Below, piece by piece: positions 3,794 through 56,826 of a stretch of 63,135 nucleotides of DNA (its first letter is position 1; each line of letters starts with the position of its first letter). The notes below the pieces were generated by a model. That model was given only the letters and a program-made list of their open reading frames with translations, was not told the DNA's origin and ran no database searches. Location of the stretch: assembly GCA_045577075.1 (NCBI GenBank), contig JAZNHR010000025.1, forward strand, positions 1-63,135. Direction: 5' to 3'. The position numbers were made by a program, and so were the translations under genes. Source of the DNA: Clostridia bacterium (lineage in GTDB: Bacteria; Bacillota; Clostridia; UMGS1883; UMGS1540).

Positions 3794-5719
3794 TTAAGCG
3801 TTTTGCTTTGTGTAATTGAGAAGCCCGCCGGCCTTCATAATTGCTTTCTGGCGGTCTGACAGGGACAGGGTCGTCTTAAATTCCGTGCCGCGGGTTACGT
3901 TCTTTACAGTAATGACGTCACCTGCCATAAGCTGGGAGGGAGCATCTTTAATTTCCAGCACATCGTTTAAGGAAATTGTATCGTAATCCGCCTCGTTTCC
4001 GAAGGTGAGGGGTAAAATGCCGGAGTTTATCAGATTTGCCATATGAATACGTGCAAAGCTCTTTGCAATAACGGCACGAACGCCCAGGTATAACGGCACA
4101 AGCGCGGCGTGTTCACGGCTGGAGCCCTGACCGTAGTTGGACCCGCCGACGATGATGCCGCCGCCGTTTTCTTTGGCACGGGTAGGGAAGTCAGGGTCAC
4201 AGGGGGTCAGGCAGAAGGAGGAAAGGTGCGGAATGTTGGAACGGAAGGGGAGAAGGGAAGCGTTAGACGGCATAATATGGTCCGTCGTAATATTATCCTC
4301 TACTTTAATTAAAACCTTGCCGTCTACCGTATCTGCCATGGGCTTATTGATGGGAAATTCTTTAATGTTGGGGCCGCGTACCACTTCGGGCTCCTGACCT
4401 TCCGGGGCAGGGGCAACCACCATGTTGTCATTTGTATAGAAAGCCTCGGGCATTTCCACTTCCAGTCTTTCACCAAGAAGAGACGGGTCGGTAAGGGTAC
4501 CGCAAATTGCAGAAAGTGCCGCCGTTTCCGGGCTTACAATATAAACCTGGGCAGACTTTGTGCCGCTTCTGCCTTCAAAGTTACGGTTGTTGGTACGAAG
4601 GGAAATAGCACCCGTCTTCGGAGCCTGTCCCATACCGATACAGGGACCGCAGGCACATTCTAAGATTCTGGCGCCGGCGTCAATCATATCGGCAAGCGCA
4701 CCGTTTTCTGCCAGCATGTGAAGAACTTGTTTGGAGCCGGGGCCGATAACAAGACTGACGTTCGGGTGTACGGTTTTTCCCTTTAAAATGGCCGCCGTCT
4801 TCATCATATCCGTATAAGAAGAGTTTGTGCAGCTACCGATAAACACCTGGTCTACGGGCAGACCGCCAAGCTCGCTGACGCGTTTTACATTGTCGGGGCT
4901 GTGGGGCATTGCAGTGAGCGAAACGAGAGAAGAAAGGTCAATGGTGATTTCTTCGTCGTATACGGCATCATCGTCTGCAAAGAGGGGGGTGAAATCTTCC
5001 TCGCGGCCCTGTGCACGGAGAAATGCACGGGTAACCTCGTCACTGGGGAAGACGGACGTGGTGGCGCCAAGTTCTGCGCCCATGTTGGTGATGGTAGCGC
5101 GTTCGGGAACGGAAAGGGTGGCAGCACCTTCGCCGGCGTATTCAATAATTTTGCCTACGCCCCCTTTAACGCTTAAAATGCGAAGGACCTCTAAAATGAC
5201 GTCCTTTGCAGAAACCCAGCCGGAGAGCCTTCCGGTAAGGTTTACGCGCACGATTTTCGGCATGGATAAAAAGTATGCGCCGCCGCCCATGGCAACTGCA
5301 ACATCCAGCCCGCCTGCACCGATTGCCAGCATGCCAATGCCGCCGCCGGTGGGGGTGTGGCTGTCAGAACCGAGAAGGGTTGCACCCGGCACGCCGAACC
5401 GTTCAAGATGTACCTGGTGGCAAATGCCGTTGCCGGGACGGGAAAAATAAATGCCGTGCTTTGAAGTAACCGTTTGAATATATTTATGGTCATCCGCGTT
5501 TTCGAAACCGGCCTGAATGGTATTGTGGTCGATATATGCCACGGATTTTTTCGTCTTTACCTTTGGAATGCCCATGGCTTCAAATTGCAGATATGCCATA
5601 GTACCGGTGGAGTCCTGCGTCAGCGTTTGGTCGATGCGAATGGAAATTTCACTGCCTGCCTTCATTTCGCCGGACACAAGATGCGATTGGATAATTTTCT
5701 GTGCCAGAGTAAGTCCCAT
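3794..5719 (-). CDS. aconitate hydratase (short, 641-aa clostridial type)
   Basis: Fe-S ligand context IGSCTNSS and ACGPCIGMG. C-terminal swivel domain with GSSREHAA. Confidence 0.9.
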   Translation of the reverse strand: MGLTLAQKIIQSHLVSGEMKAGSEISIRIDQTLTQDSTGTMAYLQFEAMGIPKVKTKKSVAYIDHNTIQAGFENADDHKYIQTVTSKHGIYFSRPGNGICHQVHLERFGVPGATLLGSDSHTPTGGGIGMLAIGAGGLDVAVAMGGGAYFLSMPKIVRVNLTGRLSGWVSAKDVILEVLRILSVKGGVGKIIEYAGEGAATLSVPERATITNMGAELGATTSVFPSDEVTRAFLRAQGREEDFTPLFADDDAVYDEEITIDLSSLVSLTAMPHSPDNVKRVSELGGLPVDQVFIGSCTNSSYTDMMKTAAILKGKTVHPNVSLVIGPGSKQVLHMLAENGALADMIDAGARILECACGPCIGMGQAPKTGAISLRTNNRNFEGRSGTKSAQVYIVSPETAALSAICGTLTDPSLLGERLEVEMPEAFYTNDNMVVAPAPEGQEPEVVRGPNIKEFPINKPMADTVDGKVLIKVEDNITTDHIMPSNASLLPFRSNIPHLSSFCLTPCDPDFPTRAKENGGGIIVGGSNYGQGSSREHAALVPLYLGVRAVIAKSFARIHMANLINSGILPLTFGNEADYDTISLNDVLEIKDAPSQLMAGDVITVKNVTRGTEFKTTLSLSDRQKAIMKAGGLLNYTKQNA

Positions 5720-19080: not shown

Positions 19081-20232
19081 TTATTCTACAACGTTTGCAA
19101 AGTACCAGTTAATGCCGCCTGTGATGGTTGCATCATCGAGTACTGCGCCGCCGGCAGGAACGATCACGTTGCCCTTGTTGTCAACGAGTTCCTTTTCTAC
19201 GAGGGCGCCGTCCACGATTGCTTTGCCTTCGAACACCTTAAATTCGCCGGACAGAATCTTAGCCTGTGCAGCTTCAATGGCTTCCTTAGTGCCTTCTGCG
19301 CAGTTGTCGGACAGGGGAGAGAGGGCAATGAGGCCATCGCTCATGCTGCCGAAGTAATTTGCATTAGACCACTTGCCTTCCATGGCTTCTTTTGCAGCCT
19401 TGGTGTAGTATACGCCCCAGTTCCAAACGGGAGCAACTAGGTGTGCACCGGGTGCATCCTTGGTCATGTCAGAGTTGTAGCCACAGCCCCAAACGCCGCG
19501 TTCTTCTGCCGCAACCTGGGGAGCTGTTGTGTCACAGTGCTGGCCGAGAACGTCACAGCCCATGTCGAGAAGGGCTTCTGCCGCTTTCTTTTCAAGGTCA
19601 GGGCTAAACCAGCTGTTGGTAACGCGAACGTAAATCTTTGCATCGGGATTTACAGAAGCAACACCCATTGCAAAGGCGTTGATACCGCCGGTAACTTCTG
19701 CGTTTTCTTTGCCCATAGCGGCAACGTAGCCGATTTTGTTGGACTTGGTCTTAAGACCTGCGGCGATACCGGTGAGGTATCTGGCTTCGTAAATACGGCC
19801 GAAGTAGTTATTCATGTTGGTGTCGTTCGACTTGTAGCCTGTGCCGTGGGAGAAAATGATGTCCGGATATTCCTTTGCCATTTCTTCCATGGTGTTCATG
19901 TAGTTAAAGCTTGTACCAAAGATAATGGAGCAGCCTTCGTCGATACATTCTTCAATGGCAATCTTGGTTGCCTGCACGTCTGTGTCATCAATATTGACCT
20001 TGCGGATAATCTGGTCATCGGAAAGACCGAGATTGTCGCGCATGGCAATGATGCCCTGTTCGTGTGCATAGGTGTAACCTGCGCCTTCAGCCGGGTCGCT
20101 GATGTGGATAACGCCGATTTTGAAGTCAGCGTTTGCGGCGCCACCCTGGGGTGCGGGGGTCTTGGTGCACGCTGTGAAGGTAAACACGAGCGCCAGTGCC
20201 AAAAGGATTGCCAAAAGTTTTGCGTGTTTCAT
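19081..20232 (-). CDS. BMP family ABC transporter substrate-binding lipoprotein (nucleoside-binding type)
   Basis: True start MKHAKLLAILLALALVFTFTAC (lipobox) at 20232 after AAGGAGGAAAACAAA. The upstream part of the track ORF runs into xpt. Confidence 0.85.
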   Translation of the reverse strand: MKHAKLLAILLALALVFTFTACTKTPAPQGGAANADFKIGVIHISDPAEGAGYTYAHEQGIIAMRDNLGLSDDQIIRKVNIDDTDVQATKIAIEECIDEGCSIIFGTSFNYMNTMEEMAKEYPDIIFSHGTGYKSNDTNMNNYFGRIYEARYLTGIAAGLKTKSNKIGYVAAMGKENAEVTGGINAFAMGVASVNPDAKIYVRVTNSWFSPDLEKKAAEALLDMGCDVLGQHCDTTAPQVAAEERGVWGCGYNSDMTKDAPGAHLVAPVWNWGVYYTKAAKEAMEGKWSNANYFGSMSDGLIALSPLSDNCAEGTKEAIEAAQAKILSGEFKVFEGKAIVDGALVEKELVDNKGNVIVPAGGAVLDDATITGGINWYFANVVE

Positions 20233-28470: not shown

Positions 28471-29073
28471 TTATTTCCTGCTTTTCTTTAGTCGGAATGA
28501 AAACAGTGCAAGAAATTTACCGATATAAAAAACAAATTGGTTGCACTGATTGATCGCAATGGTTTTCCCGAGGGCTTTGCCACCCACCGTCAGGGCGGAA
28601 ACGGTGCCCGTAACAAACAGGCTTGTAAGGAGCGAGGGGAGAGAGTAATTCGTTACAAGCTGAGAAGCGATAAAGCTACCCGTGGCACCGCTTACGATGC
28701 CGCAGATATCCCCTACAACGTCATTACAAAAGTTTGAAACCTTTTCCGCATTGCGTATAAGGCGAATGGACTCTGCCGCTCCGCGGACACGGTTTGAAGC
28801 CATGGCGTGAAACGGGGCTTCTGCCGCCGTGGTGACTGCAATGCCTAAAATATCAAATATAATACCGAGAAATACGATGGTCAGCAAAATCAAAAACGCC
28901 ACCGTCATGGCCACATTCCCAAGGAGAGAAGAGGTTACAACGGTAATGGAAACAGAAAGAAAAAAGGTTAAAAGAATCGTCGTAATAATCCAGGACACGC
29001 TTACCTTTCGGCGCAGCGTGTGACTGCTTTTTACTTTCATTTTCCTGCGTTTATGGGGCACATCCTCTTTCAC
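28471..29073 (-). CDS. oapA: small 4-TM membrane protein, OapA-like (OLE-associated protein A candidate; CNNM/DUF21-like TM fold)
   Basis: Probable GTG start at 29073, 6 nt after AAGGAAGA; alternative ATG at 29040. The upstream part of the 257-aa track ORF runs through the structured RNA and is not coding-like. Sits immediately downstream of the large ncRNA and upstream of dxs. Confidence 0.6.
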   Translation of the reverse strand: MKEDVPHKRRKMKVKSSHTLRRKVSVSWIITTILLTFFLSVSITVVTSSLLGNVAMTVAFLILLTIVFLGIIFDILGIAVTTAAEAPFHAMASNRVRGAAESIRLIRNAEKVSNFCNDVVGDICGIVSGATGSFIASQLVTNYSLPSLLTSLFVTGTVSALTVGGKALGKTIAINQCNQFVFYIGKFLALFSFRLKKSRK

Positions 29074-29094
29074 GATACGTCTTCCTTTTATAAA

Positions 29095-29706
29095 AAATTT
29101 GGTGGTAGAATACGGAGTAAATTTTGCGGCATAGGTCCGAGACGGATTTCCCACTTCCGTGCCCGCGCGTCGCCGCTCCGGGCCGTTTCCGATTAAACAG
29201 AAGCCGAGCCAGAGGCTCGATTCGGATTGCCACTTAGTCCGCACTGCAATCCTCCGTATTCCACAGGTTACTGAACAGCCTAGGAGATTTCCTCAACAGT
29301 CAAACCGACTCTTAGCCTTTTTTGCAGATAGGATTTCAAACAGCAATATCTCCGATTTGTTGGCCGACAAATCGGGGCATGAACCGTTATCCTTCATACC
29401 CACGCAAGGCAGGCTACTCTGCCCACAGCGCCAATACGGCACCGCATGGCAGGTTTACTCCTACGCCGTACTCCGCCCTGTCGCCCACAAGGGACGAGCA
29501 GAGGTAGAAGCACGTACGCAGGTCTCCACGGAAAAGGGGTCAACGCTCGCATGCCATTGCGAATCGCCCCTAAACCTTAACCCCCAGCATCGACCCCCGA
29601 CTGGGCGTCGAAAGCCAACACCAGGAACTTCATCGATATGCCCTTCTACGGATTTTTAGGCCCGTCTTGGGAACCGGCATCCTGACTAGGATACTGCACC
29701 ACCTTT
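29095..29706 (-). ncRNA. ole: large structured non-coding RNA, candidate OLE (ornate large extremophilic) RNA
   Basis: About 610 nt between its own consensus promoter and the oapA-like gene, with no credible ORF. Many perfect local hairpins, for example CCGATTTGT/ACAAATCGG at 29352-29375 and CGAGCC/GGCTCG at 29205-29219. A 5'/3' closing helix GGUGGU (29698-29703) pairs with ACCACC (29101-29106). The ncRNA-oapA-dxs-tlyA context matches the known OLE locus. Boundaries are approximate. Confidence 0.65.
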
Positions 29707-29712
29707 CCATGC

Positions 29713-29741
29713 AGTATATCATATCTTTCGCACTTTGTCAA
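29713..29741 (-). promoter_or_regulatory. consensus sigma-A promoter of the OLE-like RNA
   Basis: Minus strand: TTGACA (29741-29736), 17-nt spacer, TATACT (29718-29713). Begins 3 nt after the prmC stop. Confidence 0.75.
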
Positions 29742-40388: not shown

Positions 40389-40417
40389 TTGACAACAGAG
40401 GAAGAATTTAGTATACT
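40389..40417 (+). promoter_or_regulatory. consensus sigma-A promoter of sigH
   Basis: TTGACA (40389-40394), 17-nt spacer, TATACT (40412-40417). Confidence 0.7.
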
Positions 40418-40454
40418 ATATCTATCGCATATGGGCTTTGCTAGGAGGAATGGA

Positions 40455-41093
40455 ATGCAAAACGAAGTGCGTCCGGAGAAGTTCGAAGCTTTGACCGACG
40501 AAAGGCTTGCACAGCTCTCGCAGGCGGGAGATGACGAAGCGACGGAATATCTTCTTTCCAAATATCGCACACTGGTACGGCGGAAGGCGAGAACGTATTT
40601 TCTCATCGGTGCCGACAGGGAGGATATTGTACAGGAAGGTATGATTGGGCTTTTTAAGGCTGTGCGGGATTATAAAGAGGACAGGCAGTCGGGCTTTCGG
40701 GCGTTTGCGGAGCTTTGCATTACACGCCAGATTATTACGGCAATTAAAATGGCAACACGGCAAAAGCATGCACCGCTAAATACCTACGTTTCCTTAAATC
40801 GCCCCTTAGGCTTTGAGGAATACGAGCTGACGCTTCTTGACGTTGTCAGCCGGGAAGAACAGGTGCTGGACCCCGAAGAAATTGTTATTCATCGGGAGCA
40901 GTTCACCGATATCGGTGCAAAGCTTTCCGGGATTTTAAGCGCGTTTGAGCGCAAGGTGCTTTCTCTGTATATCCGGGGAGAGTCCTATCAGGAAATCGGT
41001 GCCGTTTTAGGGAAAGAACCAAAATCCATTGATAATGCCCTGCAGCGCATCAAGCATAAAATCCAGAAATATGTGGAACGATATCCAAAATGA
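40455..41093 (+). CDS. sigH: RNA polymerase sporulation sigma factor SigH
   Basis: ATG 40455, 6 nt after GGAGG. Motifs YFLIGADREDIVQEGMIGLFKAVRDYKEDRQSGFRAFAELCITRQIITAIK and YIRGESYQEI are typical of SigH. Confidence 0.9.
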   Translation: MQNEVRPEKFEALTDERLAQLSQAGDDEATEYLLSKYRTLVRRKARTYFLIGADREDIVQEGMIGLFKAVRDYKEDRQSGFRAFAELCITRQIITAIKMATRQKHAPLNTYVSLNRPLGFEEYELTLLDVVSREEQVLDPEEIVIHREQFTDIGAKLSGILSAFERKVLSLYIRGESYQEIGAVLGKEPKSIDNALQRIKHKIQKYVERYPK

Positions 41094-42859: not shown

Positions 42860-45800
42860 ATGGGATTCGTACATTTACATGTGCATAGCGAGTACAGTCT
42901 CCTTGACGGTGCTTGCCGTATTCGGGACCTTGTACAAAAAGCAAAGGCGGAGGGACAAGCAGCGCTTGCCCTTACGGACCATGGCGTTATGTACGGTGTC
43001 ATTGATTTTTACGATGCGGCCATGGAAGCCGGCATTAAACCGATTATCGGGTGTGAGGTGTATACCACCGACGGCGACCGCACGCAGAAAACAGCAGGGC
43101 GTGACGAGGAAATCGGGCATCTTGTGCTGCTTGTAAAAAATGAAGAGGGGTATAAAAACCTCATTCGTATGGTATCCGTAGGCTTTACAGAGGGGTTTTA
43201 TTATAAACCCCGTGTAGATATGGAAACACTTCGGGCAAATAGCGGCGGGCTGATTGCCCTTTCTGCATGTCTTGCAGGGGATATTCCCCGTGCCCTGCTT
43301 CGCGGCGAGTATGACGACGCGAAAATGCGTGCCCTTCGGTATAGGGACGTCTTTGGGGAAGGGAACTTTTATCTCGAACTACAGGACCACGGCATTGAGG
43401 AACAGCGAAAGATAAATCCCCTGATCGTGCGGCTTTCGGAAGAAACGGGGATTCCCCTTGTGGCGACGAATGACGTCCACTATATTGAGAGAACCGACGC
43501 CAAATATCAAGACGTGCTCCTTTGTATCCAGACAGGGAAAAACGTCAGCGATACGGACCGTATGCGGTTTACGGGCGAAGAATTCTACTTAAAGAGCGAA
43601 GGGGAGATGGCGGCGCTGTTCCCCTATGCACGCGCTGCTATTTCCAATACCGAGAAAGTGGCGGACGCATGTAATTTTGATTTTAAATTCCATCAGCGCC
43701 TGCTTCCAAAATACGATGTGCCGGGCGGCGAGGACGCCTTTGCCTATTTAAAAGCCCTGTGCGAAAAGGGGCTTTCCGAGCGATACAAGACGCCCACCGA
43801 TGAAGCCAAAGAACGCCTTTCCTATGAGCTTGGCGTAATCCAAAGCATGGGCTTTGTGGATTACTTTTTAATCGTGTGGGATTTCGTCCACTTTGCAAAG
43901 TCAAGCGGTATTGCCGTAGGTCCCGGCAGAGGCTCGGCGGCAGGGAGTATCGTGGCGTACAGCCTCTATATTACAGATGTTGACCCCCTTCGGTATCAGC
44001 TTCTTTTCGAGCGTTTTTTAAATCCGGAGCGCGTTAGCATGCCCGATATTGACATTGACTTTTGCTATGTGCGAAGACCTGAGGTTATTGACTATGTAAA
44101 CCGCAAGTACGGCGCGGACCATGTGGCGCAGATTATCACATTTGGTACCATGGCGGCGCGCGGCGTCATAAGAGACGTGGGGCGCGTCCTAGGCATGTCC
44201 TACCAAGAAGTAGACGTGGTGGCAAAAATGGTGCCGAACGTATTAAACATTAAGCTGCGGGACGCTTTGGAAATGACGCCGAAACTCAAGGACTTATACG
44301 AAAATGACAGCCGTATTCGCGAGCTTATCGACACGTCCCTCGCCCTTGAGGGACTACCGCGCCATGCCTCTACCCACGCAGCAGGGGTCGTCATTTCCAA
44401 TGCACCCGTTTCGGTGCATGTTCCGCTGCAAAAAAACGATGAAGTTATTACGACCCAGTTCCCTATGGGTACCTTAGAGCGGCTGGGACTTCTTAAAATG
44501 GACTTTTTAGGCCTTCGGAACCTTACGGTCATACAGGATGCCGCCGAAATGGCTGGCATCACCATGGACACGAAAAACATGGCATACGATGCGCCCGAGG
44601 TCTTTGCCCTTATCAGCCGCGGCGATACGGCAGGCGTATTTCAGCTGGAGAGCGCAGGCATGAAGTCCTTTATGCGTGAGCTTTCGCCGGACTGCCTGGA
44701 AGACGTCATCGCCGGTATTTCTCTATACCGTCCGGGCCCGATGGATTCCATTCCTACGTATATCCGCAATAAAAAGAATCCTGAGAAAATTACGTATCTG
44801 CACCCTAAACTGGAGCCTATTCTCCGCGTTACCTACGGTTGTATCGTCTATCAGGAGCAGGTTATGCAGATTGTACGGGACATCGGCGGCTACAGCATGG
44901 CACGGGCGGACTCTGTTCGTAAAGCCATGAGCAAAAAGAAAACGGACGTTATGGAAAAAGAACGGGAAGTTTTCATAAACGGCCTTATAGAGGACGGAGA
45001 AATTAAAATTGCCGGTGCTGTGCGAAATGGGGTTCCGGCTAACATTGCCAACCAGATTTACGACGCTATGATTGACTTTGCAAAGTACGCCTTCAATAAG
45101 TCCCATGCGGCGGCGTATGCAGTATTGGCGTATGAAACGGCGTATTTAAAGTGCTTTTATAAAGTATACTTTATGGCGGCACTATTTAACAGCGTCCTTG
45201 GGAATATGGACAAAATTGCAGCATACGCGGTGGAATGTGAAAAGATGGGGATTCGTCTCCTGCCGCCGGATATGAATAAAAGCTATTATAAATTTACGGA
45301 AGAGGACGGCAACATTCGCTTCGGCCTTGGGGCTGTCCGCGGCGTCGGGCAAGGTTTTTCCGACAATGTGGCACGGGAGCGCGAAACAAATGGCACTTTT
45401 GCCGGTCTCGGCGATTTCATCGAGCGTATGCTCGGGAAGGATATGAATAAGCGTGCCCTCGAAGAACTGATTTGCGGCGGTGCGTTTGATTTTACGGGTG
45501 CCCACCGTGCCCAGCTTCTGGCAAGCTACGAGTCTATGCTGGAATCGAAGGCAGGACGTGCGAAAAATAACATTGCCGGACAGCTTTCCCTTTTCGGGGA
45601 TGCTTTGCCCCAGACGGATACGTACCCGAACGTGCCGCCCCTTTCGGCGAAGGTGCGTCTTGCAAAAGAGAAAGAGGCGCTGGGCATCTATATGTCGGGC
45701 CATCCTTTGGATGCCTATAAAGAAGTGATTGCCGCCATAAAGCCGGTTTCTATTTTAAGCCTTAAGGACACAGAGGATAGCCCCTATCACGACCGCCAGC

Positions 45801-46279
45801 GGGTCGAGGTGGCAGGCCTTGTTTCCGGCAGAAAAAATAAAATGACAAAAAATAATGCCCTGATGGCATTCCTTACGATAGAGGATTTGACGTCTTCTAT
45901 GGAAGTGATTGTGTTCCCCAAAGTGCTGACGGCGTGTGACGAGGCCGCGGCGGAAGGCGCGGCAGTGCTTGTTCGTGGCACCTTGAGCCTTCGGGAAGAA
46001 GAGGAGCCGAAGCTTTTGGCAGATGAAATTCGCCTTTTGCCTGCTGGCGGCGAAGTGGGAAGCAGTATCACGATAATGGTTAAAAAAGGAGAAGAAGGAA
46101 AAATAGACCGTTTTCACAAAACTGTCCTTGCCCACCCGGGCATGGATACTTTGTATCTTGCAGTAGACGGCAAAACGTATAAAACAAAAATGGGCGTTTC
46201 GAAAAGTGCCGCCTTCTTAAAAGCGGCGGCGGAACTTTTTGGGACTGACAGCGTAAAGGGAGAGGAGGAATCAGTATGA
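42860..46279 (+). CDS. dnaE: DNA polymerase III alpha subunit (DnaE type)
   Basis: 1139 aa. PHP domain MGFVHLHVHSEYSLLDG and Pol IIIa core motifs. Confidence 0.97.
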   Translation: MGFVHLHVHSEYSLLDGACRIRDLVQKAKAEGQAALALTDHGVMYGVIDFYDAAMEAGIKPIIGCEVYTTDGDRTQKTAGRDEEIGHLVLLVKNEEGYKNLIRMVSVGFTEGFYYKPRVDMETLRANSGGLIALSACLAGDIPRALLRGEYDDAKMRALRYRDVFGEGNFYLELQDHGIEEQRKINPLIVRLSEETGIPLVATNDVHYIERTDAKYQDVLLCIQTGKNVSDTDRMRFTGEEFYLKSEGEMAALFPYARAAISNTEKVADACNFDFKFHQRLLPKYDVPGGEDAFAYLKALCEKGLSERYKTPTDEAKERLSYELGVIQSMGFVDYFLIVWDFVHFAKSSGIAVGPGRGSAAGSIVAYSLYITDVDPLRYQLLFERFLNPERVSMPDIDIDFCYVRRPEVIDYVNRKYGADHVAQIITFGTMAARGVIRDVGRVLGMSYQEVDVVAKMVPNVLNIKLRDALEMTPKLKDLYENDSRIRELIDTSLALEGLPRHASTHAAGVVISNAPVSVHVPLQKNDEVITTQFPMGTLERLGLLKMDFLGLRNLTVIQDAAEMAGITMDTKNMAYDAPEVFALISRGDTAGVFQLESAGMKSFMRELSPDCLEDVIAGISLYRPGPMDSIPTYIRNKKNPEKITYLHPKLEPILRVTYGCIVYQEQVMQIVRDIGGYSMARADSVRKAMSKKKTDVMEKEREVFINGLIEDGEIKIAGAVRNGVPANIANQIYDAMIDFAKYAFNKSHAAAYAVLAYETAYLKCFYKVYFMAALFNSVLGNMDKIAAYAVECEKMGIRLLPPDMNKSYYKFTEEDGNIRFGLGAVRGVGQGFSDNVARERETNGTFAGLGDFIERMLGKDMNKRALEELICGGAFDFTGAHRAQLLASYESMLESKAGRAKNNIAGQLSLFGDALPQTDTYPNVPPLSAKVRLAKEKEALGIYMSGHPLDAYKEVIAAIKPVSILSLKDTEDSPYHDRQRVEVAGLVSGRKNKMTKNNALMAFLTIEDLTSSMEVIVFPKVLTACDEAAAEGAAVLVRGTLSLREEEEPKLLADEIRLLPAGGEVGSSITIMVKKGEEGKIDRFHKTVLAHPGMDTLYLAVDGKTYKTKMGVSKSAAFLKAAAELFGTDSVKGEEESV

Positions 46280-47632: not shown

Positions 47633-47660
47633 AAAAGGGACAGTTTACTGTCCCTTTTTT
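47633..47660. terminator. bidirectional terminator between araC-like gene and rnpB
   Basis: AAAAGGGACAG-TTTA-CTGTCCCTTTT. Confidence 0.8.
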
Positions 47661-47664
47661 ATAT

Positions 47665-47996
47665 GAGCAAGCCTGTAAGCCGAGTTCTGTCAAAAGCAAT
47701 CATCTATCTACGCCGCACATCGCTATGCGGCTTTAGCCACCAGTCGAAGAAGCGCCGGGCCGGCTTATCTCTTCTGTCGGTGTTGCACCGAGTGGGGTTT
47801 ATACGGCCGGTATGTCGCCATACCGCCGGTGAGCTCTTACCTCGCCTTTCCATCCTTACCACAAAAAGTGGCGGTTGTTTTCTGTTACACTATCCTTAGA
47901 GTCGCCTCCACCAGACGTTATCTGGCACCCTTGCCCTATGGTGCTCGGACTTTCCTCACCAAAGCGAACGCTTTGCCGCGATTGCCCAGCTTACTC
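47665..47996 (-). ncRNA. rnpB: RNase P RNA
   Basis: Minus strand contains the universal P4 elements GAGGAAAGTCCGAGC and ACAGAACTCGGCTTACAG. P1 helix GAGTAAGC/GCTTGCTC defines the ends. The plus-strand track ORFs here are spurious. Confidence 0.9.
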
Positions 47997-48048
47997 ATAT
48001 GGATAGTATAACACAGGAAAGAGAGCGTTGTCAACGGTTTTCTGTCTT

Positions 48049-48762
48049 CTATTGGTGCATGAGCTGCCGGAGCCTTGTAATTGCCCGCTTTTCAGCTCTG
48101 GAAACCTGCACTTGGGAAAGACCAAGCAGTTTTGCGGTTTCGCTTTGTGTTTTATCCCTGAAATAGCGGCATAAAATCACGTTCTTTTCTGTTTCGTTGC
48201 CGGTATCCAGAAGCCGCAAAAGGGTAACGCGATCTGCTGCCTTTTCGGCGATGTCCTCGCCCTCGGCAAGCACGTCCCCAAGCTGTCCCTCGCCGTCCCC
48301 GATCGGTCGCTGGAGGGAGTCCGGGATTTGTACCGCTTCCATTGCCGCCGCAATTTCTTCCATGGGGACGCCAAGTGCTTCGGAAACAGCGGAAAGCGGC
48401 ACATCACCACCGGCTTTTTCAGAAAGGGTGCGGGCTGTGCTGGCGGCTTTTACGGCAAGCTCCCGTACGCTTCGGCTGACCTTTATGATGCCGCTGTCCC
48501 GAAGGTGCCGGCGTACCTCGCCCATGATCATAGGAACAGCATACGTGGACAGGGCAAGTCCTCGGGATAAATCAAACGCACGGACAGCTTTGATAAATCC
48601 AATTGCCCCAAGCTGAAAAAGGTCCTCGTCTTCTGTGCCTCTGCCACGAAAACGGGAGACCACGCTCCGAATCAGTGGCGCATTGTCTTTCGTGAGCGTT
48701 TCGAGCGCTGCTTCGTCACCGCTTTGTGCGGCACGAATCGCCTCGTATGTACCGTTATCCAT
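48049..48762 (-). CDS. sigF: RNA polymerase sporulation sigma factor SigF
   Basis: 237 aa sigma-70 group 3. Third gene after spoIIAA-spoIIAB. Confidence 0.9.
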
Positions 48763-49174
48763 GGATTCTTTTTGTCATTACAACGCGTGTTCCCTCGTCG
48801 AGCCGGGAGGAGACGGCGAGGCTGTCCATAAAGCTTTCCATCACGGTAAAGCCCATGCCGCTTCTCTCCAGATGCGGCTTTGAAGTATAGAGGGGGCGCA
48901 TCGCCTTTTCTACGTCCGCAATCCCTCTGCCCTTATCGCGGATGATAAAGGTCAAAAGAGAGCCCTTACATTCCATTTCCAGGCAGACCTTGCCACTTCT
49001 GCCCTCATAGCCGTGAATAATGGCATTGGTTACGGCTTCGCTCACGGCGGTTTTAATGTCGGCGAGCTCTTCCACCGTGGGGTCCAGCTGGGCGGCAAAA
49101 GCCGCCGCCGCAACCCGCGCAAACCCCTCGTTTACCGATTTTGCTTCTAAAATAATTTTCACCTTGTTTTCCAT
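48755..49174 (-). CDS. spoIIAB: anti-sigma F factor (serine kinase) SpoIIAB
   Basis: 139 aa. Motifs [14 protein letters not shown] and RSGMGFTVM. Confidence 0.92.
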
Positions 49175-49185
49175 CGTTTTCCTCC

Positions 49186-49521
49186 TTAAAGTCCGGCCGC
49201 GGCGGCGCTGACTGTTTCATACACGGGAATGATTTTATAAATCCCTGCAAGGGAAAGGAGCTTATCCGCCTCTTTTGACGGAGCTGCAATGCGCGTCGTG
49301 CCCCCAAGGGCGGCAATCATTTTATACCGTCCGATTAAAATACCAAGCCCGGAACTATCCATAAAGCGAAGCTGGGAAAGGTCGAAAATCAGATTCCGCA
49401 TGCCTGCGGCACTTATGCGGCTTTCAAGCTCTTCACGTACATAGGAAGCGTTGTGATGGTCCAGCTCTCCGCGAAGCGTTGCCACCAGCGCTCTCCCCGT
49501 AGTTTTACATACGACTTCCAT
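49186..49521 (-). CDS. spoIIAA: anti-sigma F factor antagonist SpoIIAA (STAS)
   Basis: ATG 49521 ([23 protein letters not shown]) after AGGAGG. Phosphorylatable DSSGLG motif. Confidence 0.9.
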
Positions 49522-49566
49522 AAATAGCCCTCCTAAATCTGGAAATTTTTTACAGATAAATGGAGT

Positions 49567-49619
49567 ATTCGCCCTCAAAAATAAAAATCCTTCCGCAAAA
49601 AAACACTACCTTTGTCGAA
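49567..49619 (-). promoter_or_regulatory. sigma-H-type promoter with upstream Spo0A box for the spoIIA operon
   Basis: Minus strand: AGGATTT (49591-49585), 13-nt spacer, CGAAT (49571-49567). 0A box TGTCGAA on the plus strand at 49613-49619. Confidence 0.55.
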
Positions 49620-49703
49620 TGGGTTTTTTTGGAAGAAAATTCAAAAAATTATGTAAACCAAAACAAAAGCAAACCAAAGCAGTAGCGAAAACCCTGAAAA
49701 AAG

Positions 49704-49800
49704 TTTTCCACATGAAAATGCCCTTTTTATCAAGTTATCCAATAAGTTATCCACATTATCCACACGAAAATGGCAGGTAAATTTCGGAATATGTGGAAAA
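49704..49800. promoter_or_regulatory. cluster of five DnaA boxes
   Basis: TTTTCCACA 49704-49712. TTATCCAAT 49735-49743. Two perfect abutting TTATCCACA at 49747-49755 and 49756-49764. Inverted TGTGGAAAA 49792-49800. Confidence 0.7.
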
Positions 49801-49954
49801 CTAAAAAGCGCATTTTTTCTGCGAAAATAGAGGTTTACAAAATTCTCATACTTCAGAAGAAAATAACAAAAAAATTTACGGAAAATCATGGAAATCTGTG
49901 ATTTGCTCTTTTATATTCCGCCCATATGTGCTATAATACGCAGTAAGAGGTGAA

Positions 49955-51940
49955 ATGTTCAAAATGAAGAAACGAATTGTATGCTTATGCCTGCTTTTAC
50001 AGTTTATTTTACCTGTTCGTGCGGCGGAAATATGGTCGGAGAAAACAGAAAAAATTGTAACCGAAGGCGTACGGCTAATACAGGAAGAACAGTTTTCGAC
50101 GGGTGGTTGGCAAAGTGTACACATACTGGAAATTGACCTTACAAATGAAAATTTGGAGCTTTCCACGCTTTTTGACAGCCGCGGTATAAGTAAAAGCAAA
50201 ACCGTGCTGAAAATGGCAGAAGAAAATGGAGTGGTAGCAGCTATAAATGGGGACTTTTTCAACTGGACGGGCACGCCGCTCGGATTTACTGTGCAGGACG
50301 GCAAGGTAATTTCCTCTCCTTCCCATGACCCGGGCCTTGCCGCGTTTATGGAAACCGAGGACGGGAGCGTGCTTTTTGACTATGTGGATATGTCGCTCTT
50401 TGTTACTTGCCCTGCAGGGTATAAGGCAGAAATTATTCATATCAATAAATACCATTCCATGCAGTCCATGGTGCTGTATACATCCGATTGGGGCAAAAAA
50501 ACGCCCGGCAGCCATGACGGTGTTTCCGAGCTTGTAGTCATAGATGGCATTGTACAGGAAATCCGTCTGGAGCAAGACGGCGTGGAAGTGCCGGAAAACG
50601 GCTATGTTCTAGCAACGTCTACCAAGACGAGCACATATCTTGTGGATAATTTCAAGCCGGGTGATGCGGTGGAGCTTTCCTACAGTCTTATGCCTGATAT
50701 TGAAAATATAAAGACTGCAATTGGAGGCGGTTCGGTACTGGTTAAAGACGGCAAACGTGCGGAATTTACCAATATTATTTCCGGCACACATCCGAGAACG
50801 GCAATCGGCATTGATAAGACGGGCGAAAAATTGTTTTTAGTCGCGGTAGACGGCAGGCAGACGGCCATGGCAGGCTTTACCCAGACACAGCTTGCAGAGT
50901 ACATGATTTCCCTCGGCGCTTATGGGGCACTGAATTTGGACGGCGGCGGCAGTACTACCATGGTGGCGAGAAACGGGGAAACGGGGACCCTTGAGGTTGT
51001 CAACACGGTTTCGGACGGCGCGCAACGTCCCGTTTCTACCGGCGTTGGCGTGCAGTTTACGGGGGAAGTAGGCACATTTACTTCTCTCAAAATCAGCGTC
51101 CATGGCAGTCCCGTTCTTGAAGGCGGCGAAGCGCATATAAGCCTTGGTGCCTATGATGAGTATCATAACCCCGTATATATAGCAGACAGAGAAATCACCT
51201 ATACGTCGGACGATGGCGACTTTGTTGGTAACGTATTTTATCCGGCGCATATCGGAAAATGTACAATAGAGGTCGCGTGTGACGGCGTTACGGCATCGAA
51301 AGAGATTGACGTTTTGCCGCGGCCGACTGCCTTTGCAGAAGAAAAACCAAAAAGCGGCGAAAGTGTTTTGATTTTGCCCGGCAAAGGCGCGGAAAATACT
51401 TTCCTTGCCGGACTTGTAAATAAGAGGCTTACCCAAATGGCAGACAGTGAGGAAACTGTGTTTGCATTCGGACAATATAAGGGCACGGCGGCAAGGGAAG
51501 TATCACGCTTTTCTGCGACAGAGCTAGAAAACAGCCTGTTTGTCACCATAGATGCAGGGCTCGGCAGTATTCGGGAAGTGGACAGCGCGCAGTGGCGATA
51601 CATTTTAGAGCTTTGTGAGAAAACGGACAAGAGAAACGTATTTTTCCTGCTGTCTGCACCCATTTCTGCGTTTACTGACGCTAAAGAAGCGGCACTTTTT
51701 GAGCGTGTGCTTTCGGAAACCTTGCGCGGACAAGGGACGGACGTATTTGTCATTACCACAGGCGAGAAAACAGAGCTTACGGAGAAAAACGGAATTCGTT
51801 ATATTTCTGTTGCGAAAACGGCAGCTATATCTGCCGAGCATTTATTTGACGATGCAAAGCAATGCGGCGTTCGCCTGACAGTCGAAGGCGACAGTGTGCA
51901 TTTTGAAACGGTACCGCTTTGGACACGGGAGGGACAGTAA
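49955..51940 (+). CDS. secreted phosphodiester glycosidase family protein (DUF2233/NAGPA-like) with Ig-like repeat
   Basis: 661 aa with signal peptide. Motifs AAINGDFF, RTAIGIDKTG..LVAVDGRQ and ALNLDGGGS. An extended -10 TGcTATAAT lies at 49929-49937. Confidence 0.8.
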   Translation: MFKMKKRIVCLCLLLQFILPVRAAEIWSEKTEKIVTEGVRLIQEEQFSTGGWQSVHILEIDLTNENLELSTLFDSRGISKSKTVLKMAEENGVVAAINGDFFNWTGTPLGFTVQDGKVISSPSHDPGLAAFMETEDGSVLFDYVDMSLFVTCPAGYKAEIIHINKYHSMQSMVLYTSDWGKKTPGSHDGVSELVVIDGIVQEIRLEQDGVEVPENGYVLATSTKTSTYLVDNFKPGDAVELSYSLMPDIENIKTAIGGGSVLVKDGKRAEFTNIISGTHPRTAIGIDKTGEKLFLVAVDGRQTAMAGFTQTQLAEYMISLGAYGALNLDGGGSTTMVARNGETGTLEVVNTVSDGAQRPVSTGVGVQFTGEVGTFTSLKISVHGSPVLEGGEAHISLGAYDEYHNPVYIADREITYTSDDGDFVGNVFYPAHIGKCTIEVACDGVTASKEIDVLPRPTAFAEEKPKSGESVLILPGKGAENTFLAGLVNKRLTQMADSEETVFAFGQYKGTAAREVSRFSATELENSLFVTIDAGLGSIREVDSAQWRYILELCEKTDKRNVFFLLSAPISAFTDAKEAALFERVLSETLRGQGTDVFVITTGEKTELTEKNGIRYISVAKTAAISAEHLFDDAKQCGVRLTVEGDSVHFETVPLWTREGQ

Positions 51941-54512: not shown

Positions 54513-56711
54513 TTATTGTATTTTTTCAAGCTTTGCGTACGTTGCCAGAAGGGTTTTCTTCCCGGCCGAAAGAAAGTTAATTTCAAGCTTTGTGTCATTA
54601 CCTACGGGCACGGCAGAAAGAATGGTACCTTCCCCGAACTTCTTATGGCGAACGGTATCGCCAGCCTTAAGGTCACACGCGGTGGCTTTAGGGGCAGGGG
54701 ATGCAAAGGAGACAATGGTTGTACCAAACTGTGCCGGCCGCACGCGGCGCGGTGTGACGGGGGGCAGGTCCACACTAAAGCTTTGCGCGCCTTCCTCCGC
54801 ATACAGCGTTTCGGGAATATCCAGCATAAAACGGGAAACCCGATTTCGCGTAGTGGTGCCCATAAGGGTGCGGGTTTGGGCGTGGGTAATATAGAGGTTT
54901 GATTTCGCTCTTGTCAGCGCCACATAGCAAAGGCGGCGTTCTTCTTCAATCTCCGCGCTTTCGTACACGGCACGGAAGGAGGGAAATACCCCCTCTTCAA
55001 AGCCGGCAAGAAAGACGGTGGGAAATTCCAGACCTTTTGCCGTATGAATGGTCATGAGCGTTACCATGTCCATATCCTCGTCGTAATCGTCCACGTCCGA
55101 AACGAGGGCGATGTTGTCCAGAAAATCGGTTAAAGAGGATACTTCCGCTTCTTTTTCATATTTAAGCCCTACGGACAAAAATTCCTGCAGATTTTCAAGC
55201 CGCGCCGCATCTTCCGGATTCTCCGGATTAAATTGCGCGGTATAATTGGTTTTTTCAAAAATCAGCTTAATCAGTGCCGTGATGGATATTTCGCCTATTT
55301 CTTTTCGGATTTCTTCTATCAGTTCCGAAAAGGCGTGCATTTTTGCCCAAGACGAGCCAACGGCAGACGCGAAGGCATCGCTGCGAATGACGCCGTAGAG
55401 GCTCATTTCGTTTTCTTCCGCAATCTGCATGGCGCGCCCTAAAGAAGTAGCTCCAATGCCGCGCTTCGGCTCGTTAATAATGCGGGAAAGACTCACCGTA
55501 TCGTCCGGGTTATGCACCGTGCGAAGGTATGCAATGATGTCCTTAATTTCTTTCGCATCATAGAAGCGGTGCCCTTTAATAATCTTATAGGGGACAGCGT
55601 TTAAAAGAAGCTGTTCTTCTATGGGACGGGACTGGACGTTCATGCGGTATAAAACAACCATATCGCTATAGGGAATCCCTTCCTGGCGATGGAGGCGGGC
55701 AAGCTCCGAGGCAATGTAGCTTGCCTCGTCATATTCCGTATTTGCGCGGTACTTTATAATTTTATTCCCTTCGCCGTTATCCGTCCAAAGGTGTTTACCG
55801 AGCCGCTCTGTGTTATGCGCGATGACCGCGTTTGCGGCATCAAGAATGTTCTGGGTGGAACGGTAGTTTTGCTCAAGACGGATGGTTTTGGCATCGGGGA
55901 AGGATTTTTCAAACTGTAAAATGTTTTGAATGTCGGCACCGCGGAATTTGTAGATACTCTGGTCCTCGTCACCGACCACGCAGAGATTTCTGTGCTTTTC
56001 GGCAAGAAGGCTGACAAGGCGGTACTGCACCGCGTTGGTGTCCTGATACTCATCAACATGAATGTACTTAAACTTGTTGCGGTAATATTCCAAGACTTCG
56101 GGACACTCCTCGAAAAGGCGTACCGTCAGGCACAAAAGGTCATCAAAGTCCACCGCGTTAAATTTTTTGAGGCTCGCCTGATATCGGGCATATACCTTGC
56201 AAAAGCCTTCCATGCGGAAGTTTCCCCGGTGAAATTCACTGTAGCTTTCAGGCGTCATCATTTCGTTCTTTGCAGCGGAAATGTTGGAAAGGCAGGCAGA
56301 TACGGTATAGGTTTTCTCGTCCAGATTTAACGCTTTCAGACATTCCTTAACCACTGCCTTCTGCTCTGCGGCATCGTAAATCGTAAAATCCGCACCGTAG
56401 CCGATTTTCTCGATGTCACGGCGCAAAAACCGAACACAAGCAGAGTGGAAGGTACGCGCCCAGATATAAGCTGCGTCCTCGCCAACAAGCGTCTGCAAGC
56501 GGTTTTTCATTTCTGCCGCCGCTTTATTCGTAAAGGTGATAGCCAGTATGTTTTGGGGATTGACATGCTTTTCGCTGATTAAATAGGCAATTCGGTAGGT
56601 AAGGACCCGGGTTTTGCCGCTGCCTGCACCTGCCAGAACTAAAAGGGGGCCTTCCGTCGTTGTCACAGCCTCGCATTGTACTCGATTTAGTTTTGTCAGT
56701 AAAGTATGCAT
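54513..56711 (-). CDS. pcrA: ATP-dependent DNA helicase PcrA (UvrD family)
   Basis: ATG 56711 (MHTLLTKLNRVQCEAV..AGAGSGKT) after GAGAGGA. Helicase motifs I-VI present. Confidence 0.93.
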   Translation of the reverse strand: MHTLLTKLNRVQCEAVTTTEGPLLVLAGAGSGKTRVLTYRIAYLISEKHVNPQNILAITFTNKAAAEMKNRLQTLVGEDAAYIWARTFHSACVRFLRRDIEKIGYGADFTIYDAAEQKAVVKECLKALNLDEKTYTVSACLSNISAAKNEMMTPESYSEFHRGNFRMEGFCKVYARYQASLKKFNAVDFDDLLCLTVRLFEECPEVLEYYRNKFKYIHVDEYQDTNAVQYRLVSLLAEKHRNLCVVGDEDQSIYKFRGADIQNILQFEKSFPDAKTIRLEQNYRSTQNILDAANAVIAHNTERLGKHLWTDNGEGNKIIKYRANTEYDEASYIASELARLHRQEGIPYSDMVVLYRMNVQSRPIEEQLLLNAVPYKIIKGHRFYDAKEIKDIIAYLRTVHNPDDTVSLSRIINEPKRGIGATSLGRAMQIAEENEMSLYGVIRSDAFASAVGSSWAKMHAFSELIEEIRKEIGEISITALIKLIFEKTNYTAQFNPENPEDAARLENLQEFLSVGLKYEKEAEVSSLTDFLDNIALVSDVDDYDEDMDMVTLMTIHTAKGLEFPTVFLAGFEEGVFPSFRAVYESAEIEEERRLCYVALTRAKSNLYITHAQTRTLMGTTTRNRVSRFMLDIPETLYAEEGAQSFSVDLPPVTPRRVRPAQFGTTIVSFASPAPKATACDLKAGDTVRHKKFGEGTILSAVPVGNDTKLEINFLSAGKKTLLATYAKLEKIQ

Positions 56712-56826
56712 AAAAGTCCTCTCTCGTAAACAGAAAAAGGGCTGACCACAATGCACTGACCACGTAAAGCATTTTGCTTTGCGCCTTTCTCGCCTTGTGA
56801 TGCAGCCCTTTATATATCTGTATTTT

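Follow-up and report, generated by a model that had tools for sequence, protein, structure and literature searches.

A predicted cis-regulatory module of ~200 bp, built around DnaA boxes, lies upstream of the spoIIAA-spoIIAB-sigF operon in one deep lineage of uncultured Clostridia. We characterized it in a 63,135-nt stretch of DNA from a Clostridia bacterium (GTDB lineage Bacteria; Bacillota; Clostridia; UMGS1883; UMGS1540; GenBank assembly GCA_045577075.1, contig JAZNHR010000025.1), here called the window, where it spans positions 49647-49844. The module combines one perfect, three near-perfect and one persistently weak DnaA box at fixed spacing with a pair of inverted 11-mers that bracket them. 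The array is under strong purifying selection, keeps a fixed geometry and is locked to the spoIIA promoter of a single clade. On this comparative evidence, we regard the boxes with high confidence as selected DnaA sites serving spoIIA. Action of a non-oriC DnaA-box cluster on a neighbouring promoter is known, as is DnaA as a transcription factor, whereas the sigma-F operon as target, the rigid bracketed architecture and the clade-wide conservation are new. Little is understood of how sporulating Clostridia ensure that exactly two complete chromosomes are present before they divide asymmetrically, and the Bacillus devices Sda and SirA are generally held to be restricted to Bacilli. The module suggests that replication status may feed directly into the genes of sporulation commitment. 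If true, this would be a direct version of the Bacillus DnaA-Sda route (DnaA to Sda to kinases to Spo0A), with the checkpoint moved from the head of the Spo0A phosphorelay to the earliest compartment-specific sigma factor, and it would give a simple answer to the two-chromosome check for at least one lineage.

A preliminary description of the window had reported five DnaA boxes in this region, and all five were confirmed at the positions it gave:

49704-49712, plus strand: DnaA box D, TTTTCCACA
49735-49743, plus strand: weak DnaA box E, TTATCCAAT, two mismatches, 12 bp from box C
49747-49755, plus strand: DnaA box C, the anchor box, TTATCCACA, perfect in the window
49756-49764, plus strand: DnaA box B, TTATCCACA, abutting box C
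49792-49800, minus strand: DnaA box A, TTTTCCACA, oriented toward spoIIA and facing boxes B-D

Allowing one mismatch, the window contains 24 DnaA-box matches where 11.6 +/- 3.3 would be expected; none of 100 shuffles of the window reached 24. Four of these matches are packed in 97 bp, the fifth box being weak. When the densest 100-bp stretch was scored in 2000 first-order Markov simulations of the window, it held one match in 1666 runs, two in 333, three once and four never. The surrounding intergenic region (49522-49954, 433 bp, 32% G+C) would hold ~0.16 matches by our own arithmetic, against the four seen. The packing exceeds chance, as in non-oriC DnaA-box clusters, to which the boxes probably belong. 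Boxes B and C form a tandem repeat of period 9 (2.0 copies, 100%, Tandem Repeats Finder); no tandem repeats were found beyond this pair. Two further repeat features of the preliminary description survived in part. The TCCACAyGAAAATGsC direct repeat is real in the window (TTTTCCACATGAAAATG and TTATCCACACGAAAATG, 52 bp apart, 88% identical) but not conserved in relatives, its extension past the boxes being already gone in the closest one (88% SpoIIAA identity). GAAAAT elements are likewise present near the positions proposed for them, but their periodicity is not conserved; only the A-runs beside boxes D and A are kept. The inverted 11-mers, the weakness of box E and the rigid spacing were absent from the preliminary description.

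The operon downstream and its predicted promoter comprise the following features:

48049-49521, minus strand: spoIIAA-spoIIAB-sigF operon, the presumed target, three-gene order kept in all relatives
49186-49521, minus strand: spoIIAA, Pfam STAS
48755-49174, minus strand: spoIIAB, Pfam HATPase_c_2
48049-48762, minus strand: sigF, Pfam sigma-70 regions 2/3/4
49567-49593, minus strand: predicted sigma-H-type promoter of spoIIAA, with GAAGGA at 49593-49588 and, 17 nt after AGGA, GAAT at 49570-49567
49613-49619, plus strand: Spo0A box TGTCGAA (TTCGACA in spoIIA sense), perfect consensus, ~-56 from the predicted start

Mapped SigH promoters of Clostridioides difficile read AGGA-17/18 nt-GAAT, and spoIIAA is SigH-dependent there (PMC7438776); C. 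difficile Spo0A binds upstream of spoIIAA (PMC3485338). Across the relatives described below, AAGG is invariant and GAAT mostly kept, and the Spo0A box is conserved as TTCGACAAAAG in most lineages at a constant 27 bp from the -35 element. By these features the site is predicted to be a sigma-H/Spo0A-dependent spoIIA promoter, and the cluster lies just beyond it, as the preliminary description had it. Counted from a predicted transcription start near 49560, the centres of the elements stand at -56 (Spo0A box), -93 (block 5, the proximal 11-mer), -148 (box D), -179 (box E), -191 (box C), -200 (box B), -236 (box A) and -278 (block 1, the distal 11-mer).

Relatives were gathered by protein similarity alone, ignoring the boxes. 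A genome scan with SigF was dominated by actinobacterial SigF/SigB-type matches and yielded two close metagenome-assembled genomes, L001 and L002 (both labelled 'Clostridia bacterium'). L003 and L004 (Lachnospiraceae) lack the cluster, and L005 lacks a recognisable spoIIAA. A protein search with SpoIIAA returned a graded series from 88% to 37% identity, from which eleven encoding contigs were taken (L081-L091). With a SpoIIAA alignment as query, a metagenome scan added 80 loci: L092, the single clade member among them, and 79 more distant ones; with one SpoIIAA sequence as query, such a scan returned no matches. The carrier set consists of the window, L001, L002 and L081-L092, that is, 15 loci of which 14 are distinct (L090 equals L088 in this region).

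The box array is present in 15/15 clade loci, over a range of SpoIIAA identity from 88% down to 46%. Relative to the spoIIAA ATG, the boxes sit at ~-279 (plus), -243 (minus), -234 (minus), -222 (the weak site) and -191 (minus), and when the loci are stacked the ~200-bp region aligns gap-free across lineages. Block 1 precedes box A by 41-42 bp, box A lies 36 bp from box B, box B 9 bp from box C, box C 42-43 bp from box D, and box D 54-55 bp from block 5.

Despite these fixed lengths, the sequence of the spacers among boxes and blocks drifts freely. Box A reads TT(T/A)TCCACA in 13/14 lineages, exactly 36 bp from box B; box B keeps the core TCCACA in 14/14 lineages, with positions 1-3 variable; box C is the perfect consensus in 13/14 and TTTTCCACA in one; and box D reads TT(A/T)TCCACA in 14/14. 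The TCCACA core is thus intact in 42/42 copies of boxes B, C and D, while position 3 is either A or T in each box, and box B is variable at positions 1-2 as well. Peaks of information content in the alignment coincide exactly with the boxes and equal in height those of the Spo0A box and the -35 element. The substitutions obey the DnaA-box rule, a pattern that marks these positions, as judged from the alignment, as sites under selection as DnaA boxes. In box E, TTAT.C is invariant, most lineages carry TTATCCAAn or TTAT(A/T)CAC(A/T), and the site nearly always has one to three mismatches to the consensus. Because it is nearly always imperfect across lineages, box E looks selected to stay weak.

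As controls we used 50 metagenome loci outside the clade in which the spoIIAA-spoIIAB-sigF operon is complete and 400 bp or more of upstream sequence are available. Boxes with at most one mismatch were absent from 43 of them, single in five and paired in two; none had three or more. Since the controls are mostly box-free, A/T-rich spoIIA leaders do not gather boxes on their own. The preliminary description had named loss from relatives as the observation that would speak against the cluster; instead, the array is kept with invariant geometry throughout the clade and is lacking from the 50 other spoIIA operons. The only control lineage with more than one box (L108 and L109, unrelated, 46% SpoIIAA identity) carries a pair of one-mismatch boxes at ~-430 and -410 from spoIIAA, spaced by 21 bp. 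The three proteins were also concatenated for a neighbour-joining tree. Here the 14 distinct carriers group as one clade, split into two deep branches, that contains no non-carrier, and SigF identity within this clade falls to ~40%, as low as in module-free lineages. The module was probably gained once and then retained.

The most conserved elements of the region are the two 11-mers, which are accompanied by a pair of palindromes inside the module:

49647-49659, plus strand: block 5, proximal flanking 11-mer, AATTATGTAAACC; the 11-mer itself (49649-49659) is TTATGTAAACC
49832-49844, minus strand: block 1, distal flanking 11-mer (49842 to 49832), TTTTGTAAACC in spoIIA sense, inverted partner of block 5
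49715-49729, no strand: A-run/GC/T-run palindrome beside box D, AAAATGCCCTTTTTA, TTTT run invariant
49802-49816, no strand: A-run/GC/T-run palindrome beside box A, TAAAAAGCGCATTTT, semi-conserved

The inverted pair (TTWTGTAAACC) brackets the boxes and is invariant or nearly so in the 14 lineages. Block 1 reads TTT(T/A)GTAAACC in 14/14, and in block 5 ATTATGT.AA is invariant and forms the top information peak of the entire intergenic alignment. The two are separated by 183-184 bp in the 12 lineages where both fit the search pattern. Exact TTWTGTAAACC occurs in the window and the clade loci at blocks 1 and 5 only, compared with six occurrences in the 303 kb of the control loci. The two palindromes, each 2-3 nt from its box (D or A), form an inverted repeat (93% complementary) and are semi-conserved, most relatives showing the pattern AAAAcGCnnnTTTT; they could mark a DNA bend or a further protein site. 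Just outside each 11-mer lies one copy of a direct repeat, GAAGAAAATTCAAAAAA (49632-49648) and GAAGAAAATAACAAAAA (49856-49872), 82% identical; the promoter-side copy falls in sequence kept among closer relatives only and the other in unconserved DNA.

In block 5, the 11-mer TTATGTAAACC matches the XerD arm of published dif sites at every base; block 1 is one base off (PMC2731167). XerD-only sites (XDS) have been described in B. subtilis, where they serve as landmarks for proteins (cited in PMC11840125). A complete dif/XerCD site spans 28 bp (XerC arm, 6-bp centre, XerD arm), and of these parts the XerD-arm-like 11-mer alone is conserved: no XerC arm or central region is kept beside blocks 1 and 5, where the adjacent 17 bp persist only in the closest relatives. 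Block 5 is for that reason not a dif site, and the likeness to XerD arms is a resemblance that serves as a lead only. By-eye comparison also tried the blocks as half-sites for cre/CcpA, TnrA, PhoP, CodY or parS and as a sigma-F/G/K -10 element; each misfits at the observed spacing or past 5-6 nt. An invertible element between the 11-mers was likewise rejected, all 15 assemblies showing one orientation. Nor did other readings of the intergenic DNA hold: Rfam gave no match within 49522-49954, and a small open reading frame (ORF) across the module would meet stops in every frame in most lineages.

The distance between module and promoter adds a further constraint. In 12 lineages, 65-66 bp separate block 5 from the -35 element; the figure is 55 bp for L088 and 76 bp for L091. 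Indels between module and promoter are limited to a loss of 10 bp (L088) and a gain of 10/11 bp (L091), and because each amounts to about one helical turn, the spacing is suggestive of a module that keeps one helical face toward the promoter.

We hypothesize that DnaA binds the module and modulates transcription of spoIIAA-spoIIAB-sigF, a reading to which we give slightly more than an even chance. DnaA would bind the array cooperatively, so that occupancy would report the amount of active DnaA. The resulting complex would sit ~90-180 bp upstream of the Spo0A box and the sigma-H promoter, with one helical face kept, and would alter the efficiency with which Spo0A~P and sigma-H RNA polymerase fire spoIIA; the flanking 11-mers may be bound by a further factor. 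Production of sigma-F and its regulators would in this way be confined to cells whose replication status permits it. DnaA of B. subtilis is a transcription factor at non-oriC box arrays, where it activates sda and appears to repress ywlC, vpr, yydA and others (PMC4447404). As to the sign of the effect, we lean mildly toward damping when DnaA is active, because spoIIA expression in B. subtilis drops at high DnaA activity; there, spoIIA-lacZ expression falls as DnaA rises, through sda (PMC12112137). With its rigid geometry, its persistently weak box and its flanking 11-mers, the module is a clean natural substrate for studying DnaA oligomers that act on transcription at a distance.

Several observations weigh against regulation of spoIIA by DnaA. 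At -148 to -236 from the predicted start, the boxes are too distant for steric repression of a simple kind; looping, spreading of oligomers or an accessory factor at the flanking blocks must be assumed. The flanking 11-mers, although the most conserved elements, are not accounted for by DnaA. The helical-phase argument consists of two indel events, with a chance of ~8% by a rough estimate. The organisms are known from metagenome assemblies alone. Finally, box clusters in Bacillus also titrate DnaA (PMC3245932).

The last point leads to the main rival, a DnaA reservoir or DnaA-modulating site that titrates, inactivates or reactivates DnaA, for example by stopping initiation at sporulation onset, much as the Bacillus clusters or E. 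coli datA and DARS do for their hosts, and does not regulate spoIIA. We consider it unlikely, though it agrees with the box architecture. Six non-oriC clusters of B. subtilis restrain initiation, one of them even after relocation, and datA has five high-affinity boxes (PMC3245932). Both datA and DARS also work with accessory-protein sites, a layout that resembles the rigid box geometry and conserved non-box elements found here. The persistently weak box E also suggests selection for cooperative, nucleotide-state-sensitive binding. Under this explanation, adjacency to spoIIA would reflect descent, or would allow nearby Spo0A~P binding to switch the site. What such a role leaves unexplained is the linkage to spoIIAA, which holds across a deep clade whereas the neighbours of Bacillus clusters change by species (PMC3245932), and the preservation of helical phase by the indels between module and promoter. 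Titration and regulation are moreover not mutually exclusive, and both roles could coexist.

An extended form of the DnaA-regulation reading would accommodate the 11-mers. In it, the module would be a nucleoprotein switch in which a DnaA oligomer and a second protein (XerD, a Xer-like protein or another) on the inverted 11-mers form a looped or wrapped complex. This complex would read initiator activity together with chromosome status and gate the sigma-F operon directly, replacing the Sda/SirA checkpoints. As a whole, this picture is decidedly speculative, and we hold it to be rather improbable.

Quite improbable, too, is that the module holds DnaA-dependent promoters of its own, with block 5 (TACATAAT) as a -10 element into spoIIA and box D near -67. 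CATAAT does fit 5/6 of the -10 consensus, and a scan of L001 calls a TTTACT-18-CATAAT promoter, whereas the promoter scan of the window finds none there. A -35 element is unconserved, the best matches of 2-5/6 being typical for A/T-rich DNA, and the 11-13 conserved nt, including GGTTT, exceed what a -10 hexamer needs. Blocks 1 and 5 face outward symmetrically, and block 1 (TACAAAAT, other strand) could similarly be a mirror-image -10 reading outward, which is equally improbable; outward of block 1 nothing is conserved.

Binding of the boxes by Spo0A or another regulator rather than DnaA is very improbable. The reverse complement of the box, TGTGGAA, is one base from the Spo0A box TGTCGAA, and spoIIA promoters are direct Spo0A targets, often with degenerate boxes (PMC3485338). 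Spo0A contacts G2, C4 and G5 of its box, and mutation of contacted bases lowers affinity ~ten-fold (PMC3485338). The mismatch falls precisely on contacted C4, where a G stands wherever the box is intact (box A in 13/14 lineages, boxes B-D in 14/14), and TCGACA occurs in no box of any lineage. Conservation moreover extends over all nine positions of the 9-mer, and position 3 alternates between A and T as DnaA boxes typically do. A perfect TGTCGAA is present separately in the same region, so in this clade Spo0A works through the canonical sequence. Spo0A~P and DnaA may compete for the boxes.

There is very little chance that the cluster is oriC, half of a bipartite origin or origin-proximal clutter. 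Five boxes in A/T-rich DNA amid locally divergent genes would suit an origin, and non-oriC clusters of Firmicutes tend to adjoin oriC (PMC3245932). However, dnaA, dnaN, gyrB, parB, rnpA and mnmG were not found among the large ORFs of the window, and the cumulative GC skew climbs on either side of 49.7 kb, where it has no minimum. This agrees with the preliminary description, which had placed a non-oriC cluster away from any dnaA or dnaN. Genes on both flanks differ among relatives, and the module has no trinucleotide (DnaA-trio-like, period-3) array and no conserved A/T-rich unwinding element, its spacers being unconserved.

The preliminary description had considered regulation of the divergent gene, an NAGPA phosphodiester glycosidase (Pfam; 49955-51940, plus strand), as likely as regulation of spoIIA. 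Pfam agrees with the identity it gave to both neighbours, spoIIAA and the glycosidase. Upstream of the module the carriers have the following genes:

Divergent NAGPA gene: window, L081, L082, L084, L086, L087
Divergent CDP-alcohol phosphatidyltransferase: L088, L090, L091
Divergent 295/296-aa hypothetical: L083, L085
Divergent 784-aa ORF: L002
Divergent 293-aa ORF: L092
Co-oriented histidine kinase: L089
Co-oriented 444-aa ORF, then a strong terminator hairpin at 3804-3830: L001

Because this neighbour varies and the stretch from block 1 to the upstream gene is unconserved, the module travels with spoIIA, and from its distribution we infer that it belongs to spoIIA and not to the glycosidase. 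Control of the NAGPA gene is accordingly barely credible: its promoter (TTTATA-16-TATAAT, 49910-49937) does lie ~110 bp from box A, but of the nine carriers that do not show this neighbour eight have another (L001, L083, L085, L088-L092) and L002 has the 784-aa ORF, left unassigned to a family; the upstream gene is co-oriented in L001 and L089, with the terminator in between in L001, and the module is always kept.

Two further sets of DnaA-box matches occur in the window. A perfect box (20103-20111, minus strand) and a one-mismatch box (20001-20009, minus strand) lie 100 bp apart in the gene of a Bmp/PnrA substrate-binding protein. Within the NAGPA gene, a perfect TTATCCACA (50641-50649, minus strand) is replaced in relatives by TTATCGACA or TTATCAACA. 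These differ only at the putative third codon position (GTG, GTC, GTT), and since such variation fits coding constraint, the internal box was rejected as a DnaA site.

The window also contains features unrelated to the module:

28471-29244: ORF overlapping the 3' part of the OLE RNA, weak CNNM match only
29086-29718, minus strand: full-length OLE (ornate large extremophilic) RNA, 485.7 bits
32161-35957, minus strand: gerA-type germinant receptor operon
40389-41093, plus strand: 234-aa sigma factor
42860-46279, plus strand: dnaE-type polymerase III alpha, 1.8 kb from sigF
47660-47997, minus strand: RNase P class A RNA, directly downstream of sigF
54513-56756, minus strand: PcrA/UvrD helicase

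The ORF at 28471-29244 may encode the OLE-associated membrane protein, whose true start would then lie later. A 78-aa ORF at 47663-47899 is spurious, because it falls within the RNase P RNA; it also has no Pfam match.

Comparison with known systems places the module close to several DnaA-box arrays and apart from each of them. In E. coli, datA and DARS act together with sites for the accessory proteins IHF and Fis. Like the module, datA and DARS1/2 have few boxes in a defined arrangement and orientation, datA with five of high affinity (PMC3245932). Their role, by contrast, is DnaA-ATP hydrolysis or nucleotide exchange and not gene regulation, and no IHF-type site was recognised in the module. 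In Pseudomonas aeruginosa, boxes of oriCII lie upstream of gidAB-parAB, and DnaA directly regulates the adjoining operon (PMC13438810). That cluster is origin-linked, in a Gram-negative host, with another target and no link to sporulation. The XerD arm of dif recurs in block 5 and, with one base changed, in block 1, but the copies of the module are inverted, 183-184 bp apart and flank DnaA boxes.

Further parallels come from B. subtilis, where the ywlC, yydA, ywcI-vpr, trmE-jag and gcp-ydiF clusters have near-consensus intergenic boxes, as in the module (PMC3245932, PMC4447404). They appear to repress their neighbours and also restrain initiation, apparently by DnaA titration (PMC3245932, PMC4447404). 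These clusters are mostly oriC-proximal and their neighbours vary among Bacillus species (PMC3245932), whereas the module is tied to one operon and shows no origin mark in 63 kb. The names spoIIA, dacF and sigF were not found in the searched supplementary lists of 269 B. subtilis regions bound by DnaA in vitro, and no paper joining 'DnaA box' and 'spoIIA' was found in the literature searched. Another close counterpart is the B. subtilis sda array (DBC[yqeG-sda]), which likewise consists of non-oriC boxes over ~200 bp upstream of a promoter (PMC4447404). Through it, initiator activity gates sporulation entry, with binding that is cooperative and prefers the ATP form (PMC4447404). The target of the sda array is a kinase inhibitor upstream of Spo0A, while the presumed target of the module, the sigma-F operon, lies downstream of Spo0A. 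Unlike the sda array, the module has a rigid geometry, a box kept weak and a bracketing pair of inverted 11-mers.

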